Assembly (NCBI RefSeq): GCF_038025025.1
Contig: NW_027117350.1
Coordinates: 620,001 to 684,000, forward strand
Direction: 5' to 3'
From: Phyllosticta citribraziliensis
Lineage: Eukaryota
Length of the DNA stretch: 64,000 bases
Below are positions 46,841 through 54,202 of this stretch, in pieces. Each line of letters begins with the position of its first letter. The first letter of the stretch is position 1. A program made the translations under genes and the position numbers. The notes under the pieces are model-generated. The model did not search any database and was not told where the DNA came from. It saw nothing but the letters and a program-made list of their open reading frames with translations.

Positions 46841-49126
46841 TCAAATAGCAATGTCCTCCACTCGCAGCAACCCATCTCCCATTCCAGCCGCAGCCCAGCC
46901 AGCGTACTTGATGTTGGGATTCCAAGCACACTGAGTGACGCCCGTTTCTTGTTCGTAAATGGTATTGTATACGACGCCCTCATACTGGTTAGGCAGTCCC
47001 GCCTCCACCCACAGCTTGTAGACCTCGGCTCGGAATCCCTCCAGCATCCTGCTCAACGGGGCCGGGTGGTTGATGATCTTGTCCGGTCTCGCCTGGTCGA
47101 TCCTTGGTGGTGGCTTTTTGGATTCTTCCCGCGAGTTGGCGGCCCCTGACGCCCCTGTCACGACTCCATTCTCGTCCACGGCGCGTCTCCATTCGTGCAT
47201 GAACCACGTTTGGTGCCACATCTCGGCCTTTGCGATTAGTACCTTGCGCATAATATTGGTCGACAGAGCCATGCCGTCTGCGCATGCGACGAGGACAAAG
47301 GGATGCACCGGGCTTGCCGACAAGTCGAGGATGTTGCTGTTGGCGCGTCCGACGCTCATGTTGACGTGGAAGCGTCGAGCCGAGAGGGCGAGAAGCGTGT
47401 AGTTTTCGTCACATGTCAGGAAGCACTGGGAGACCTCGTGCCATTGGAGAGGAGCACTGCCGGTGCGCGATCGCTGGGAGAAGAGAGTGTCTTGGAGCGG
47501 AGCGCGAAGGTCAATCAGTCGCAAGTAGCCGTCCATGCTGCTGGTGGCGACTAGAAAGGGATGCGAGGGGTAGGCGCTGGCGATGGACAGAATGTAGCTG
47601 CTGTGCACGTTTTGGTAGAACCAAGGGCGAGGTGTGTCCACGACGTCCGAAGAAAGAAGAGATTCCGAAATATCCCAGACGGCCATGCTTCCGTTGGCAC
47701 AGCTGACGGCAATTTGATTACTGGAGAGCCATGTCACTGACGTACAAACAGTATCTGGTGGTCTCGACTCAAACGCCGCTTTGGTGATGTAAATGTACTG
47801 AGTCGATGCCTTCTTGGGGTATTTGACATCCAGCACTCTGACTTTGCCATCGCCCCAAATGCCCGCCAGAAGTCCGAGACAGATTTCGCTCTCGTCTTTA
47901 CAGTCTCTTTTTGGTAGCGGACACCACTTGAGTTGCCTCACAGGGCCCCAATCCATGCAGATAACCAACTCTTTTCTTGGGGGAATGCCCATGTCCATCG
48001 TGAGGCCCTTTCCTGGTTCCACTTTCGACGCGAATCCCCATATCTGGACGGGAGCAGGAGTGGAGGGAAGAGGCACGAATGCAGGCGCGCTGTGAGGTTC
48101 TGTAAATGCAGGAAATTTGGATCGTTGCAATGCTGCTATTGCCAGACGTTGAGTACCATCTAACCACGGGGCCCATTCCAGACATTGAATCTTTTTGCAC
48201 AGGTTCAAAGTCCATGCCTGTCTGCCTGAGCTTTTCTTACTGGAGGTTTTGGCATCCCAAAATTGTGCCATGTTTATTGCGTCGTCTGGTTTCAAAGTGT
48301 GCAGCCTCGGTTTGGCTATAGGGCCAAAGAGCACCTCTCGGTCAGGGCCATCCGTTTGTGGCATGTACTTTGCGGCCTCGCTGGCCGACAGCTGCTTGGA
48401 CTTTTGCTTGAATTTGAATGCAAAGGAACCACCCTTGTCGTGGTACCACTCCCAGCCCTTGGAGGCTTCATGTTGGCGGCATTGGTCGGTGTAGTACCGG
48501 TTATACGCAAAACCGCCTTCGCCCCTCTGCTCTTTGCGCGTGGGCAAAGTCGGGCGGTCATGCCATCTGTCCCGGGCTTCCACCGCCGGCCAGACGTCCT
48601 CCTCAGCCGGGCCAAAGAGGTTCATGAAGCGCGTGTCTTTTCCGGTGTTGTGGTACATTTCAGGAACTCCTCGGGATGATAATTTGCGTTCACTCTCTTC
48701 TGCCTGGTGACCTTTTCCAGTAAACTTGGCAAAGCTTCCAGTTTTGAATGCAGAGTTTTCTGCGCGCTCTAGATAGCCGGGCTTGAAGGGTTTCTTGCCT
48801 TGGTTTTTGCCTTTGCGGCGAGGTGCTCCTGGGGCGGCGCCAACGAGCTCTTCATCGTCACTGAACATCATGACAACGCTGTCATCGTCTTCTTCTTCTG
48901 GAGCCGAGCCATTCGAACTCTCGGCAACAGAAGCGTCGTCATCTTCGTCATCCTCTGCAGCGTCGCCGCCGGCAGCGCCGTCAAACTCACCGTCGGCGTC
49001 TGAATCATTTTCCTCGGGCGGTTCACTGCTGGTCGGATCGTCGTCGTCAAGGTCTAGTCCTTCAAAGGCATCGTTGGTGTAGCGTTTTACTGTGCGGGCC
49101 CTTGTCGATGTACGACGAGAGGCCAT
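46841..49126 (-). CDS. TFC6: RNA polymerase III transcription factor TFIIIC subunit Tfc6/Sfc6 (WD40)
   Basis: Acidic N-terminus, WD-like blades (LKWCP...LGLLAGIWGDGKVRV, TSSMDGYLRL) and the C-terminus AWNPN...GWAAAGMGDGLLRVEDI. Confidence 0.85.
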   Translation of the reverse strand: MASRRTSTRARTVKRYTNDAFEGLDLDDDDPTSSEPPEENDSDADGEFDGAAGGDAAEDDEDDDASVAESSNGSAPEEEDDDSVVMMFSDDEELVGAAPGAPRRKGKNQGKKPFKPGYLERAENSAFKTGSFAKFTGKGHQAEESERKLSSRGVPEMYHNTGKDTRFMNLFGPAEEDVWPAVEARDRWHDRPTLPTRKEQRGEGGFAYNRYYTDQCRQHEASKGWEWYHDKGGSFAFKFKQKSKQLSASEAAKYMPQTDGPDREVLFGPIAKPRLHTLKPDDAINMAQFWDAKTSSKKSSGRQAWTLNLCKKIQCLEWAPWLDGTQRLAIAALQRSKFPAFTEPHSAPAFVPLPSTPAPVQIWGFASKVEPGKGLTMDMGIPPRKELVICMDWGPVRQLKWCPLPKRDCKDESEICLGLLAGIWGDGKVRVLDVKYPKKASTQYIYITKAAFESRPPDTVCTSVTWLSSNQIAVSCANGSMAVWDISESLLSSDVVDTPRPWFYQNVHSSYILSIASAYPSHPFLVATSSMDGYLRLIDLRAPLQDTLFSQRSRTGSAPLQWHEVSQCFLTCDENYTLLALSARRFHVNMSVGRANSNILDLSASPVHPFVLVACADGMALSTNIMRKVLIAKAEMWHQTWFMHEWRRAVDENGVVTGASGAANSREESKKPPPRIDQARPDKIINHPAPLSRMLEGFRAEVYKLWVEAGLPNQYEGVVYNTIYEQETGVTQCAWNPNIKYAGWAAAGMGDGLLRVEDIAI

Positions 49127-49415
49127 GGCGCAGCGAGAGTCGACGGCGGAGTCCAGTAGGAACGGAAACAGGGACCTGGACTGGGTTTGGTTTGGGGCTT
49201 GGAACAGAATTGGACCGAGCGCCGAATGCCGCGTGGGTCGGTGCGGCCAACGGCAGATGCCATCATCGCGCCGCCCAACTCCAACTCCAAGTCCACATCA
49301 TCAAACGCTTTTCCTGCAACACCCTCGCCACCTCTCCTGCCGCTGCCCCTTCCATGACGACCTAGCCGCCTTCGCCCTCCCCCCACTCCGCGTATCGCCG
49401 CCGAAGCCGTCTGCC

Positions 49416-51053
49416 ATGGCCTCTCTGCCTCACCACCCCGCCTCTCAGCGGCGATCGTCGCACCGCGAACCGGGCTCCTCATCCGACGCCACTGTGCCAC
49501 CAGCCGATCATGAAGCCTTCTCGACCACCTCTGTTGACTCCGATACCATCCTCTTCAATAGCGCGCGGCAGCTTCCTAGACAAGAAGCTTCGTCCCCCCA
49601 AGCCCAGGCAGCTTCGGCAGCGCCCCGCCAGCCAGCCGCCGACGACGAGGACCTACGGAGATGCTGGATATGCTTCAATGACGAGAATGAAGATGGACCC
49701 GGATCTTCTGCCTGGAGAAGTCCCTGTCCTTGCGCCCTGGTCGCCCACGAGGATTGTCTGCTCGACTGGGTTGCAAGCCAAGAGGCTCCGAATGCACGAC
49801 GACAGGCTGGGTCGGGGAGCAAGATTACCTGTCCCCAGTGCAAGAGCGAGATTCACCTCAAGAGGCCCCGAAGCTTGGTGGTGGAGGGAGTGAGGGGGGT
49901 GGAAAAGTTCGCAGGATACTTTGTTCTTCCTGGCACGGTGGGCGTACTGGGCTACACAGTCTTTCAAGCATGCTTCATGCACGGCGTGAGTACGGTTTAC
50001 GCTGTCTTTGGATTAAGAGATGGCATTCGGATCCTCCAGCCGCTATACCGGAACCCTCTTTGGGATCGCAGGGACCACGAATCGGTGGCCTTGACGGCCA
50101 TGTCTCGCTTTCTCCAACACGCGCGGCTGCATTTTGGCCTGGCGAGTATCCCTCCTATTCTCATCGCTTCGCGTCTGTCAATCGCCGACTCTATTCTCCC
50201 TATCCTGCCCGTTATTTTCCTAGCATCATCGGGACCAGAGGACCTCCTGGATTTCCGCACCGGGAGCTGGCCCCCAAGCGCCTCTCTCTGCTTTTCTCTT
50301 CTCCCATATATCCGCGCCGCTTACAACAAGTACATGGAAAAGGTCTGGGGCAAGAAGCAGCGCCAATGGCTTAAGGAAATCCAGCCACGCGCGGGCGAGA
50401 CGGACGATGCGCAGGCCACCGATGATCTGCATGACAATGACAACCTTCATGGCCAAGACGACGGCATGCTTGGCCTTGACCTCGATGTGCGCATTGATCT
50501 CGTTGACGAGGATGACGCGGACGAGCATTTCCACGACGATTTCCACGTCCTTCCAGGCGAGCCCGTCGACCTCAATGCTGCTCATCCCTTTGATGCCCCG
50601 CCTCTCGCCGACAACGATCCCGCCGCACATGCGGCCGCCCAGCCCGGTCAAGTTCCCGGCCACGATGCGCCGCCGCCGCAGCAAGAACAACAGCCAAACG
50701 CACAACCACGCCCCCGGGCGCGTCCAGCCCGCGAGCGCAACCTCATCTGGCAAGGCACCAATCTCGCCGACACCGTCCTCGGCGCCCTCGTGTTCCCCTC
50801 CATCGCCGCGGCCGTGGGTGAGCTGTTGCGACTAGGGCTGCCAAAGAGCTGGACGACGCCGCCAAACTACTTCCTCAGCCGCCCGACAGGTCTCATGCAG
50901 CAGCGATGGGCACGCAGCCTGGTGGGCGGGTGTCTGTTCGTCGCTGTCAAGGATGCCGTCATGCTTTATGTGCGCTGGCGCATGGCGCAGAGCCATCGGC
51001 GGAGGAAGGTGCTGGATTACGACAAGAGGAAGGGTAGGGTCGTCGAGGTCTAG
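49416..51053 (+). CDS. RING-variant (RING-CH) membrane E3 ubiquitin ligase, MARCH5-like
   Basis: CWIC...WRSPCPCALVAHEDCLLDW...CPQC, several transmembrane segments and RSLVGGCLFVAVKDA. Confidence 0.9.
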   Translation: MASLPHHPASQRRSSHREPGSSSDATVPPADHEAFSTTSVDSDTILFNSARQLPRQEASSPQAQAASAAPRQPAADDEDLRRCWICFNDENEDGPGSSAWRSPCPCALVAHEDCLLDWVASQEAPNARRQAGSGSKITCPQCKSEIHLKRPRSLVVEGVRGVEKFAGYFVLPGTVGVLGYTVFQACFMHGVSTVYAVFGLRDGIRILQPLYRNPLWDRRDHESVALTAMSRFLQHARLHFGLASIPPILIASRLSIADSILPILPVIFLASSGPEDLLDFRTGSWPPSASLCFSLLPYIRAAYNKYMEKVWGKKQRQWLKEIQPRAGETDDAQATDDLHDNDNLHGQDDGMLGLDLDVRIDLVDEDDADEHFHDDFHVLPGEPVDLNAAHPFDAPPLADNDPAAHAAAQPGQVPGHDAPPPQQEQQPNAQPRPRARPARERNLIWQGTNLADTVLGALVFPSIAAAVGELLRLGLPKSWTTPPNYFLSRPTGLMQQRWARSLVGGCLFVAVKDAVMLYVRWRMAQSHRRRKVLDYDKRKGRVVEV

Positions 51054-51763
51054 GCAGGGCTACCTTATGGAAGCATGGACGTTTTTGATCTGTGGCGTAG
51101 CGGCCGTTGGTCGCTTTAGCGGGAGGTCATTCAATTGGACCCGGCATGTTGGCATGGTGTCCGGTGTTGGGCGCGCAAAGGCGCAATTCCGCCTTGAGTC
51201 TAGGTAGTCCCGTGACAATGGCACTCTTCGGGGTCTCAAGTATACTGGAATCGGTATGGCTGTGATGTCTGCCGGGGGTTGTGCAGGCATGTCCTCAAGC
51301 CGACCCAACAGAGTATCGAATCTATGAAGAAAAGCTCAGTTCTCTCAGATTGAATGAATCCATTGTGACCGGCACCACAGCTCTGACAGGTCGCTGGGGC
51401 TTGCGTGCGCTTCCGGCCTACGTATGTAGGTAAGGTAAGGTAGGTGTCGCACCCGCTGCACTCCTCCTGCAGACAGCGGTGGAGCAGCTGCGACATCATG
51501 CGAGTGAGCATCCCACCGTGTTCAATGTTGCCATGCACATGCAACGCTACACTTCACCACGAATGAGACGTCCACCCATCACGCCGTGCAGATAAATAAA
51601 CAACTGAAGCACAGATACCATTCAAAACGACAGCACTATTTCCCTCCCGCAATCCTAAACAGAAAAAGAAAAATGCTTCAACAGACTCCATGGGTATTGC
51701 CATCCCGTCCCAAACGCCGTCCCATGACATGACATGCTACGCTGAAAAGGAGCCGCCAGGCCG

Positions 51764-52751
51764 TCATTTGGGGAAGATGGTCTGCGGCGGACTGCTGATG
51801 CTGTGGCAGTGGCAGCCGAGATCGCGGCAACCAGTCGGACGCGAGGGGTCGTACTTGGGGTAGCCCAAGTCCTCGTCGCTGTCCGTCTCGTCGCCGACGT
51901 CCTCGATTACTTCGGCGGTTGCAAGACTCTTGACTTCGACTTTTGCGAAATCGTCGCCCTTTTCCTCCTCCGCGCCGCCGCCGCCAAAGGCCTTTCTGAA
52001 GCCTCCCTTGGCCGGCACAGGCGGCGTGGGAGCGTCAATGGTCGCTTGTTGCTGCTGCGGTTGCTGTTGCTCATCAACGGCGGGGGCAGACGCCTTGCCA
52101 AAGGCGCTCTTGAAGCCGCCCTTTTTGAAGCCGCCCTTCTTGCTGGGCGGCAGGTCCAGCTTGACGGGGTCCATGGAGATGAGGCCGGCTTCCTCGTCGG
52201 CCTTGCGCTCGGCGCGGCGCGCCTTTTCGGCGGCCTGCGGGTTCTTGGACATTTCCTTCATGTCTTTGAGGCGCTGTTTTGACCGCGTTAGGAGCGTGAA
52301 GGAGACAACAGAGGGTGGTGGCGGCGACGAGTTTGCCATGGGGTGAAAAGTGAAGATGAAATACGGAAAATGGAAAGCTGAGAAGAAGGTGGTGGGGTTC
52401 ATGGTCTTTCCTTCTTGTGCTGGTGGTCGTATGAGGATATGTGTGCTTCAAACTCATTGTGACGCTTGTAGCCCTTGTTGCACAACTCGCCTGTTGCCGT
52501 GAGTTAGTTCTGGATGCTTCGAGTTGCTGAGCAGCAGAGTTTGGACATACAAAAGAAGTTCTTAGCGGCTTCGCGAGCGCTGTCGGTCTGGTTGACATGC
52601 GTCAGTCTCAAAGTTCCAGATATGCTGCTTGGAGGACATAGGACCACGGCGGAGCTGCTTACCAGAGGAGCAGGATTGGTAAAGGCGCGCTGAGACCAAT
52701 TAGCATTCTGCGTGGTAAGGGGCAAATGGGAAATGCACTGACTGGAGGCAT
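51764..52751 (-). CDS. C2H2 zinc-finger protein of the GPATCH8/ZNF804 finger type; exons 52751-52743, 52689-52663, 52587-52551, 52490-52411, 52273-51764
   Basis: Spliced product MPP|RAFTNPAPL|TDSAREAAKNFF|CELCNKGYKRHNEFEAHISSYDHQHKK|RLKDMKEMSK...KKGGFKKGGFKSAF. Introns 1-3 are canonical; intron 4 begins GA. Confidence 0.85.
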
Positions 52752-53031
52752 AGCTGGCCAATTTTGGGCAACGTTTGCGGGGCGTGCTCGAGCTAGTGAC
52801 GAGGATAGACAGGCGGATTGATGATGCGGTGTTGGTTTCTGGATTGGCGGGACGGGACGGCAGCCCAGCCGAATAATGGAAGGATGCCGCGTCTCCGGGC
52901 CGAGAAGCGTCCGTGCGCCCATCGGCCGAGCGCATCAGACGGCGCCCGATTCCGCTGACATCAAAGGCACCTTATTTCCCCGGATTGATCCTCACCATCT
53001 GCCCTCCCCGTCTTTCTCCACACCTCCCACC

Positions 53032-54202
53032 ATGGGTCCTCCGGCTCCTGATGCCGCCTCCGAAGTCTTCAGTCTGCTCGAACTCGACCCGGCTCCCGTC
53101 GACGACGATTTCCGCTCTACGAGGGCCGATGGTGCCCGCCCATCGTCATCATGGTCCGCCAAAGTCCCCGCGCCCTCGCGCATGAGCTCGCTGGGACTTA
53201 GTGGACACAGTCCTGTCTTTTATTGTGAGTACCTTTGCTTGGTCTCTTTCGTATTTCACAGCTTTTTCCAATCTTTCGTCATGTCCACTTCTTTGGGATT
53301 CTTTGTCAAGTCTGAAGCTCCTCGGGAAGGGAGTTCTTGCAAAAGGAAGACACACGCGACTAGCACAATTGCCCTACCAGGATTTCATGAGCAATGGACG
53401 GACTTCAAATGCCAACCCTATCACTTTCTCCAGCTAGCATATATTGACCATGCCCCCAGTAACACGCATCCAAAAATACTCATCCTACGCTTTTACCCTC
53501 TTCGCCGCCGCCCACATAACCAACACCTCGCTCATCCCGCTGACGACGCGGTCCCTCCCTGCCTCCGACACCTACCTCCTCCTGACGCGGCCCTACTACC
53601 AAGACTTCCCCTTCGAGCAACTCCTCGTCATCGCGCCGCTGGCCCTGCACATCCTCTCGGGCCTCGCGCTGCGGCTGTACCGGCGCCGGCAAACGGTGCG
53701 GCGCTACGCGGGCGAAGCGTCGACGCGGTCAGAGCGGCGCCGCGTGCCCTGGCCGGCCGTGAGCGGCACGTCGGCGCTCGGCTTCGCCAGCACGGCGCTG
53801 GTGGGCGGGCACGCGCTCGTCAACCGCGGCGTGCCGCTGCTGGTCGAGGGCAGCAGCGCGGGCATCGGGCTCGAGTACGTCAGCCACGGCTTCGCGCGGC
53901 ACCCCGTGCTGTCGTTTGTCGGGTTCGGCGCCCTCGTCTCCGTCGCCGTCTGGCACGGCGTGTGGGGCGCTGCCAAGTGGAACGGGTGGACGCCCGCGCA
54001 GCTCGTGCGCCCCGGCTACGAGGGCGAGATCAGGCGCAAGCGCAGGTGGTATGTCATCAATGGCATAGCGGCGGCGCTCGCGGGCCTGTGGATGGCGGGT
54101 GGGTTGGGCGTGGTTGGGCAGGGCGGAGCGGCGACGGGGTGGGTTGCGAGAGACTATGACAACCTGTTCAAGAGCATACCACTCGTGGGGCAGTGGCTGT
54201 AA
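53032..54202 (+). CDS. MCP1: Mitochondrial outer-membrane adapter Mcp1 / DUF1691 protein; exons 53032-53224, 53460-54202
   Basis: LTRIQKYSSYAFTLFAAAHITNTSLIP...LLLTRPYYQ...HILSG...HALVNR...YVSHGF...WHGVWG; multi-pass membrane protein. Confidence 0.82.

Follow-up and report, generated by a model that had tools for sequence, protein, structure and literature searches.

A GA-AG intron, spliced and partly retained, in a C2H2 zinc-finger gene of Phyllosticta citribraziliensis

GA at positions +1 and +2 is among the rarest of donors. The 64,000-nt stretch of Phyllosticta citribraziliensis DNA analysed here (the window) carries, on its minus strand, a gene for a small zinc-finger protein in which one intron is written with this dinucleotide. 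Is this intron real and removed as written, and what is made when it stays in the transcript? The first-pass annotation had read it as a GA-AG intron on which the full-length protein depends, and had named a base-call error or a strain mutation as the alternative.

To place the exon junctions, positions 52000-52800 of the window were compared, at 80% likeness, with the assembled contigs of four sequencing runs (X1, X2, X6 and X18) of 24 indexed. None of these runs is recorded as RNA, ‘RNA’ being a guessed label. Several of the contigs lack GT-AG introns and must therefore derive from spliced RNA whatever the label of the run; a cDNA origin was assumed on this ground. The contigs are unstranded, carry one mean depth each and have lost rare variants, so that they show presence and not absence; stretches without contig cover were used as evidence only where a contig bridges them.

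Joining the exons by coordinates gives a gene at 52751..51764 of the minus strand, in which five exons form a 663-nt ORF of 220 aa. Its features are:

52743..52751, minus strand: exon 1, ATG CCT CCA, with the start codon at 52751-52749; joint 52689|52743 in X1 and X2 contigs
52690..52742, minus strand: intron 1, 53 nt, GT-AG, CCA|GTCAGT; skipped in X1 and X2, no unspliced contig kept
52663..52689, minus strand: exon 2, 27 nt, from sequence and contigs
52588..52662, minus strand: intron 2, 75 nt, GT-AG, CTG|GTAAGC, from sequence and contigs
52551..52587, minus strand: exon 3, 37 nt, from sequence and contigs
52491..52550, minus strand: intron 3, 60 nt, GT-AG, TTT|GTATGT; skipped in X1, X2 and X6
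52411..52490, minus strand: exon 4, 80 nt, which holds most of the C2H2 finger; its last residues are ...YDHQHKK (TAC GAC CAC CAG CAC AAG AAG)
52274..52410, minus strand: intron 4, 137 nt, GA-AG, from sequence and contig joints
51764..52273, minus strand: exon 5, beginning RLKDMKEMSKNPQ, 169 codons, stop TGA at 51766-51764
51723..52797, minus strand: approximate extent of the mRNA, from a 776-nt X2 contig, with adapter after 52797

The lower bound of the mRNA was obtained by arithmetic, 277 letters of the X2 contig falling below 52000. The first Cys codon of the finger is split by intron 3, and exon 5 opens, from 52273, with the codons CGC CTC AAA GAC. Each of introns 1-3 carries a CTRAY-type branch motif 10-14 nt from its CAG acceptor, and all three are GT-AG, as the first-pass annotation had stated. 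The coordinates and letters of its gene model were also right; its exon 1 was one base too long, intron 1 being of phase 0.

Intron 4 reads AAG|GAAAGA...CTAAC...CAG|CGC on the minus strand and lies in phase 0. Directly after the end of exon 4 (52411) stand the bases GAAAGACCATGA (52410..52399). Its signals are:

52405..52413, minus strand: 5′ splice site AAG|GAAAGA, matching CAG|GTAAGT at 6/9 positions (-2, -1, +1, +3, +4, +5)
52399..52401, minus strand: in-frame TGA, closing the frame of the retained intron after 54 aa (...HKKERP, stop)
52287..52291, minus strand: branch-site consensus CTAAC, its branch A 14 nt from the 3′ splice site, with the CAG ending at 52274

By this count the donor of intron 4 reaches 6/9, against 6, 7 and 5 of 9 for the donors of introns 1, 2 and 3. 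Signals of the U2 type are present throughout, in a donor of consensus type but for +2, a CTRAY branch site close to the acceptor and the YAG acceptor itself. The CTAAC, which is the fungal consensus, and the CAG were found where they had been announced, ahead of the RLKD exon. U12-type donor or branch motifs, as generally known, were not visible in the intron 4 sequence. The GT dinucleotides closest to the donor lie 43 nt upstream and 46 nt downstream, and the closest GC dinucleotides 10 nt upstream and 32 nt downstream, in line with the earlier claim that neither occurs between the end of exon 4 and the in-frame TGA. As no GT is near, the GA site stands alone and is the sole donor seen for intron 4. 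The RNA of intron 4 and its flanks folds no better than chance (z = +0.75; an equal or better fold in 149 of 200 shuffles), and no Rfam RNA family was found within the 64-kb window. In the minimum-energy fold the donor pairs over 7 bp with intron positions 22-28; this pairing was dropped because the stretch differs in X6.

Contigs of X1, X2 and X18, that is three of the four runs, from three studies, skip exactly 52274-52410 and join 52411 directly to 52273, the very junction that had been predicted. The ends of the skip read CT..TC on the plus strand, hence GA..AG on the minus strand, and the joint 52273|52411 has a depth of 541 in X1, 102 in X2 and 391 in X18. The most complete picture comes from X2, which bears the same organism label as X1; its 776-nt contig lacks all four introns (skips 52690-52742, 52588-52662, 52491-52550 (cut +1) and 52274-52410), matches the window without a single difference and runs into sequencing adapter. 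In X1, a 58-nt contig bridges 52273|52411 and a 174-nt contig bridges introns 1-3. The 52273|52411 bridge recurs in X18, which carries a different organism label and is 95-99% alike. With GA in the genomic sequence, the exact skip in the contigs and the frame restored, the proposed GA-AG intron is real.

The joined ORF is further matched by proteins of related fungi. From residue 1 to residue 55, a stretch that crosses the junction, it agrees fully with P0002, P0003 and P0004, and over 220 aa the identities amount to 205 with P0002 (Phyllosticta citrichinensis), 192 with P0003 and 176 with P0004 (P. citriasiana). P0003 is itself cDNA-like, since its 974-nt contig encodes 222 aa in one unbroken ORF. 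Splicing at GA is the sole route seen to the 220-aa product, and in this sense the full-length protein does depend on the GA donor, as had been proposed.

Not all transcripts have lost the intron. An unspliced intron 4 contig was kept in three of the four runs, with depths of 397 in X1, 181 in X18 and 112 in X6. Taken roughly, from contig depths, the unspliced form makes up ~42% in X1 (397 unspliced versus 541 in the bridge) and ~32% in X18 (181 versus 391); X6 has the unspliced form of intron 4 only, and X2 the spliced form only. For introns 1-3, which contigs do bridge, no unspliced contig was kept in any of the four runs. This suggests that the intron 4 donor is used less efficiently than its three GT neighbours; some of the unspliced pieces may instead be of antisense or read-through origin. 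A stop-containing, unproductive isoform (unspliced contigs in three of the four runs) coexists with the productive one. Its frame closes after 54 aa, little beyond the finger, which would give the truncated, finger-only product expected from retention.

The unspliced contigs also tell whether GA belongs to the DNA of this strain alone. The 195-nt unspliced contig of X1 (52246-52440) has 0 differences from the window, so it reads GA at 52410-52409. X1 and X2 possibly come from the assembled strain, which leaves X6 and X18 as independent at the level of the organism. X6, under a further organism label and 90-95% alike, provides a 3207-nt contig from which intron 3 is removed and in which intron 4 is present. 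The interior of its intron 4 (52311-52396) differs by 16 substitutions and 5 indels, and no differences occur at 52397-52413 nor over the 37 nt at 52274-52310. The unspliced form of X18 has 59 other nt in place of 93 interior ones and departs from the window at 2 letters of 52399-52440. Within 52411-52440 the two bridging contigs have equally many differences, and the ambiguity of the joint grows from 2 to 5 letters; for these reasons we infer that the two differences are exon positions 52414 and 52413 (...HKQ), none falling in GAAAGACCATGA.

To see what other fungi have at this place, metagenome contigs were scanned for the coding pattern of EAHxxSYDHQH, with nothing presupposed about what follows it. 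The scan gave 38 loci in 28 distinct contexts. There is no intron in 16 of the 28 contexts (21 loci), where HK(K)|R(L/F).. is contiguous. The other 12 have an intron at the phase-0 position: 11 begin with GT (15 loci), 1 with GC (2 loci) and 0 with GA. Given 16 intronless contexts and 11 with GT, the intron position is old, has been lost repeatedly and is normally of the GT type. The GC context (L001 = L018) has a 70-nt intron with the donor AAG|GCAAGC. AAG at +3 to +5 is common to the GA site and this single GC site, but is found in only 1 of the 11 introns that begin with GT here, a pattern expected if a defect at +2 must be compensated.

Protein models offer a second, indirect view, as an intron translated in error can reveal its first codon. 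Among 263 proteins examined, the end of the finger could be recognised by its motif in 163 and was absent in 100. The 163 continue with R... in 146 cases, with V (GTN) in 13, with S in 1 and with E (GAR) in 3. The three E models are those of Diplodia seriata (P0006, HKK-EREPH), Neofusicoccum parvum (P0008, HKK-ESNPL) and a Phyllosticta-like, finger-only model of 67 aa (P0193, HKK-ERPVLF), so that among the 163 motif-bearing proteins E after the finger exon is confined to Botryosphaeriales. These protein models, read in place of DNA, suggest that GA, probably as GAAAG, is common to Phyllostictaceae and Botryosphaeriaceae, with the ascertainment bias that only anomalous models can reveal a GA. 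The split between the two families is dated in Table 3 of PMC9961722 to ~81 Mya (61-102). The TGA directly following the donor is kept in X6 and X18 and missing from the source of P0193 (HKKERPVLF...) as well as from the Diplodia and Neofusicoccum models. Models of N. ribis and Aplosporella prunicola are distorted at this place too, in a way that does not reveal the dinucleotide.

With these data, the trivial explanations of the GA-AG junction can be weighed. A base-call or assembly error, or a mutation private to the strain, would mean that the true donor is GT. Nothing was found in its favour; X1 and X2 could share a strain with the assembly. The unspliced X1 contig agrees with the window at every letter; X6 (unchanged at 52397-52413) and, as deduced above, X18 (52399-52410 kept) retain the GAAAGA start under other organism labels and at 90-99% likeness; and P0193, P0006 and P0008 all read E after HKK. 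As the unspliced contigs of X1, X6 and X18 carry GA, it is neither a base-call error nor a private mutation, and we give this alternative of the first-pass annotation next to no credence.

Hardly more probable is that the junction does not reflect spliceosomal removal of the intron, being either an artefact of template switching by reverse transcriptase or the result of an Ire1-type cleavage or of a two-step twin-intron reaction. Non-canonical junctions are often template-switching artefacts, and the joint is indeed ambiguous by 2 letters (AG) in X1 and X2 and by 5 letters in X18. Yet the joint recurs in three runs of three studies at depths of the same order as those of the exon contigs, it restores the residue sequence that intronless orthologues encode contiguously (16/28 contexts), an intron with GT or GC occupies the same place in the 12 other contexts, and the skipped segment itself contains a CTAAC branch site with a CAG acceptor. 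In a spliceosomal twin intron, as described in PMC5639578, removal of an internal intron completes a canonical donor, branch site or acceptor. The internal GTs of intron 4, at +46, +82, +101, +104 and +127, form no GT..AG pair whose removal puts T after G(+1), and intermediate joints were not found in the contigs. Since the region folds no better than shuffles and no internal pair rebuilds GT, the Ire1-type and twin-intron routes were rejected.

What is encoded by the spliced transcript was examined by profile and structure searches. The protein has a single C2H2 finger, probably of the JAZ/U1 (RNA-type) class, residues 23-50 of which come near the Pfam family zf-C2H2_jaz (21.7 bits on P0002 versus a cut-off of 22.6; 23.8 bits on P0193); zf-met reached 19.0 bits versus a cut-off of 21.2. 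No G-patch was found by Pfam at E<=0.1 in P0002, P0012, P0024 or P0193, which agrees with the earlier statement that the fungal protein lacks this domain. A profile search gathered 1061 representatives at E<=0.001. Conserved in the family are the finger, a RLKDMK..AEKARRAERKA stretch, the motif GGFKKGGFKSAFG and a C-terminal YDPxxPTGC motif. The best 150 of the 1061 all have <=406 aa and include no long metazoan relative; searches among long proteins returned 3 long matches, all fungal fused gene models, and again no long metazoan relative. Nothing better than E = 0.09 came from a profile search of the PDB, and the AlphaFold model of P0002 (alignment A1; mean pLDDT 55.1, pTM 0.17) was too poor for a fold search.

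Two leads connect the finger with metazoan GPATCH8/ZNF804: the NCBI name of the Diplodia seriata orthologue P0006 (‘Zinc finger protein 804A, partial’), and a protein atlas in which a ‘G patch domain-containing protein 8’ cluster comes at rank 8 with a score of 0.86, graded as a lead. On these leads it may be the GPATCH8/ZNF804 finger. ZNF804A and GPATCH8 have one C2H2 finger each and bind splicing factors, and metazoan GPATCH8 has conserved poison exons, according to the relevant passages of PMC6811834. An analogy of the fungal protein to ZNF804A/GPATCH8 seems reasonable, with membership of that family unproven.

How does intron 4 compare with known GA-AG introns? The best-described are those of human FGFR1-3 (Twigg 1998, Brackenridge 2003, as cited in PMC4176328 and PMC7072748), whose GA site, these citing papers report, relies on downstream intronic elements and on a canonical GT located 6 nt upstream. 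As portrayed there, they share with intron 4 a U2-like character, evolutionary conservation, a GA 5′ splice site and productive removal. They differ in the setting of the donor: with its closest GT dinucleotides 43 nt upstream and 46 nt downstream, the fungal GA site is not a ‘parasitic’ donor in the sense of those accounts. In the animals Eurytemora affinis and Oikopleura dioica, GA-AG introns are abundant (~3.2% of supported sites in E. affinis), GA is preceded by AG and followed by A, and a variant U1 has been proposed, as set out in the pertinent sections of PMC7072748. The fungal site, AAG|GAAAGA, likewise has the upstream AG and the downstream A. Unlike the genome-wide occurrence presented for these two animals, a single intron of one gene is known here, flanked by three neighbours with GT.

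Among fungi, Table 1 of PMC11590231 gives 35 GA-AG sites of ~92,000 (0.038%) for Ganoderma lingzhi, and GA-AG is listed among the 0.31% ‘other’ sites of Fusarium graminearum in PMC3577648. Where they treat these sites, the two reports provide counts, without the cross-species conservation or gene-specific retention seen for intron 4. No published account of intron 4 itself was found among titles and abstract openings on GA-AG introns in fungi and on Phyllosticta splicing, a weak sign of novelty. Intron 4 thus adds a new and conserved case from fungi to the known, rare class of GA-AG introns.

Two further comparisons concern its strength and its consequences. GC is a common and efficiently used +2 variant, GA a much rarer one. 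Like GC-AG introns, intron 4 has a U2-type donor that is variant at +2 and would be compensated by a strong consensus elsewhere, and a GC-AG intron occupies the very same position in the metagenome lineage L001 = L018. The presence of an early-stop isoform beside the productive one recalls splicing regulators with poison exons or retained introns, among them metazoan GPATCH8 as presented in PMC6811834. By comparison with the poison exons described there, the mechanism here would be a weak donor and not a cassette exon, and the fungal protein has no G-patch.

We consider it highly probable that intron 4 is a genuine U2-type GA-AG intron which arose in Botryosphaeriales from a GT ancestor by a T-to-A change at +2, and which, as a weak site, is partly retained. 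It would descend from the older GT intron that lies at the same phase-0 position, after the HK(K/Q) codons of the finger, and the T at +2 would have become A in an ancestor within the order. Recognition would still be possible because the remaining signals are close to consensus, with AG preceding the cut, G at +1, AAG from +3 to +5 and the CTAAC located 14 nt from CAG. It weighs against this that the 6/9 match of the donor is no better than the matches of introns 1-3. The pairing of U1 and U6 with the positions of the donor is established, and by this logic the defective +2 could be compensated by their pairing at the other donor positions. Removal of the intron by the spliceosome would then be the only way to the 220-aa protein. 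The GA site would be weaker than the three GT donors, a sizeable share of the transcripts keeping intron 4 and stopping after 54 aa. Retention would be the tolerated cost of a weak site, lowering protein output, and probably not a designed switch.

The other reading that deserves discussion is that GA has been kept by selection. Intron 4 would then act as a detained or poison intron, whose removal follows the capacity of the spliceosome or, as in the autoregulatory splicing-fidelity sensor of the first-pass annotation, the finger protein itself, and thereby sets the dose of the protein. The sensor has one precondition, a substantial pool of RNA that retains intron 4, and such RNA was seen as contigs in three of the four runs. 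Selection of this kind is possible but unlikely in our view. It would fit with GA being present in at least three Phyllosticta-type organisms and, as judged from protein models, also in Diplodia and Neofusicoccum, across the family split of ~81 Mya given in PMC9961722. It would fit also with an intron interior that has diverged freely between two congeners and leaves the first 14 nt and the last 37 nt unchanged, with a balance between spliced and unspliced forms that varies by run (X2 spliced, X6 unspliced, X1 and X18 both), and with the poison exons of metazoan GPATCH8 and the binding of splicing factors by ZNF804A and GPATCH8, as far as PMC6811834 reports them. At the overall rate of change of the intron, however, simple arithmetic gives an unchanged 14-nt block a chance of ~0.1. 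The immediate TGA is missing from the source of P0193 and from the Diplodia and Neofusicoccum models, the differences from run to run may come from the assembler and not from biology, and membership in GPATCH8/ZNF804 is a lead, with the G-patch absent. Equally doubtful is the longer-term form of this idea, in which selection in Botryosphaeriales would have held GA over tens of millions of years, the lone weak donor serving as a throttle through which the output of a ZNF804/GPATCH8-like RNA-binding finger protein would follow spliceosome capacity or the protein's own level.

Under the preferred reading, a weak but genuine GA-AG intron derived from a GT ancestor, the locus has several uses. The intron is short, its GA donor seems to function unaided, and the fungi concerned are genetically tractable, all of which makes intron 4 a compact natural substrate for asking how GA sites pass both catalytic steps. 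Should retention prove to be regulated, it would offer a simple case of dose control by a non-canonical donor. There is also a practical consequence for annotation. Gene finders that admit no donors other than GT and GC mis-annotate this gene throughout the order, as is seen from the public orthologue models of Diplodia seriata, Neofusicoccum parvum, N. ribis and Aplosporella prunicola, which go wrong exactly at this junction.

The distortion of public gene models is located precisely at the equivalent of window 52411|52273, the exon 4/exon 5 junction of the finger gene, in four orthologous database proteins (P0006, P0007, P0008 and P0010). A fifth entry, P0193, carries the finger only. The models read as follows:

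Diplodia seriata (P0006): junction reads HKKEREPH..
Neofusicoccum ribis (P0007): junction reads HISSCSHMH..
N. parvum (P0008): junction reads HKKESNPLTTPTG..
Aplosporella prunicola (P0010): junction reads DHQSQVRNLPT..
Phyllosticta-like entry (P0193): finger-only model, 67 aa

In all five of these odd models, the non-canonical donor of intron 4 has probably led the annotation astray.

The same intron position was found in a GC-AG form in one metagenome lineage, represented by two loci with the finger coding pattern (L001 and L018). At both loci, the matched H-R-K codons lead straight into a 70-nt intron (AAG|GCAAGC). The GC-AG form in this lineage indicates that the +2 base of intron 4 has been altered at least twice, to C in the L001/L018 lineage and to A in Botryosphaeriales. 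In both changes, AAG occupies positions +3 to +5.

In the organism of the X18 contigs, the final two codons of exon 4 appear to be AAA CAG (K Q), versus AAG AAG (K K) in the window, differing at 52413-52414. This apparent reading was obtained from the listed change at 52414 together with the 5-letter ambiguity of the joint; exon 4 would then terminate in a full consensus, CAG|GA.

Two genes flank the finger gene:

53438-54202, + strand: divergent upstream neighbour, MCP1_TM domain (PF07950, E = 4e-43)
49083-51053, + strand: convergent downstream neighbour, open frame with a RING-variant domain (RINGv, PF12906)

Because PF07950 and the finger protein are joined in a single 521-aa model of Alyxoria varia (P0124), this entry suggests a fused gene model and a gene neighbourhood conserved in a distant ascomycete class. 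An Ophidiomyces ophidiicola entry named pyruvate dehydrogenase E1 beta (P0123, 576 aa), with 69% identity to the finger protein over 34% of the query, is probably a further fused gene model. On the downstream side, a 3207-nt contig of X6 starts in exon 3 of the finger gene and ends ~2.7 kb beyond 52000; it probably represents two convergent transcripts, those of the finger and RINGv genes, merged by unstranded assembly.
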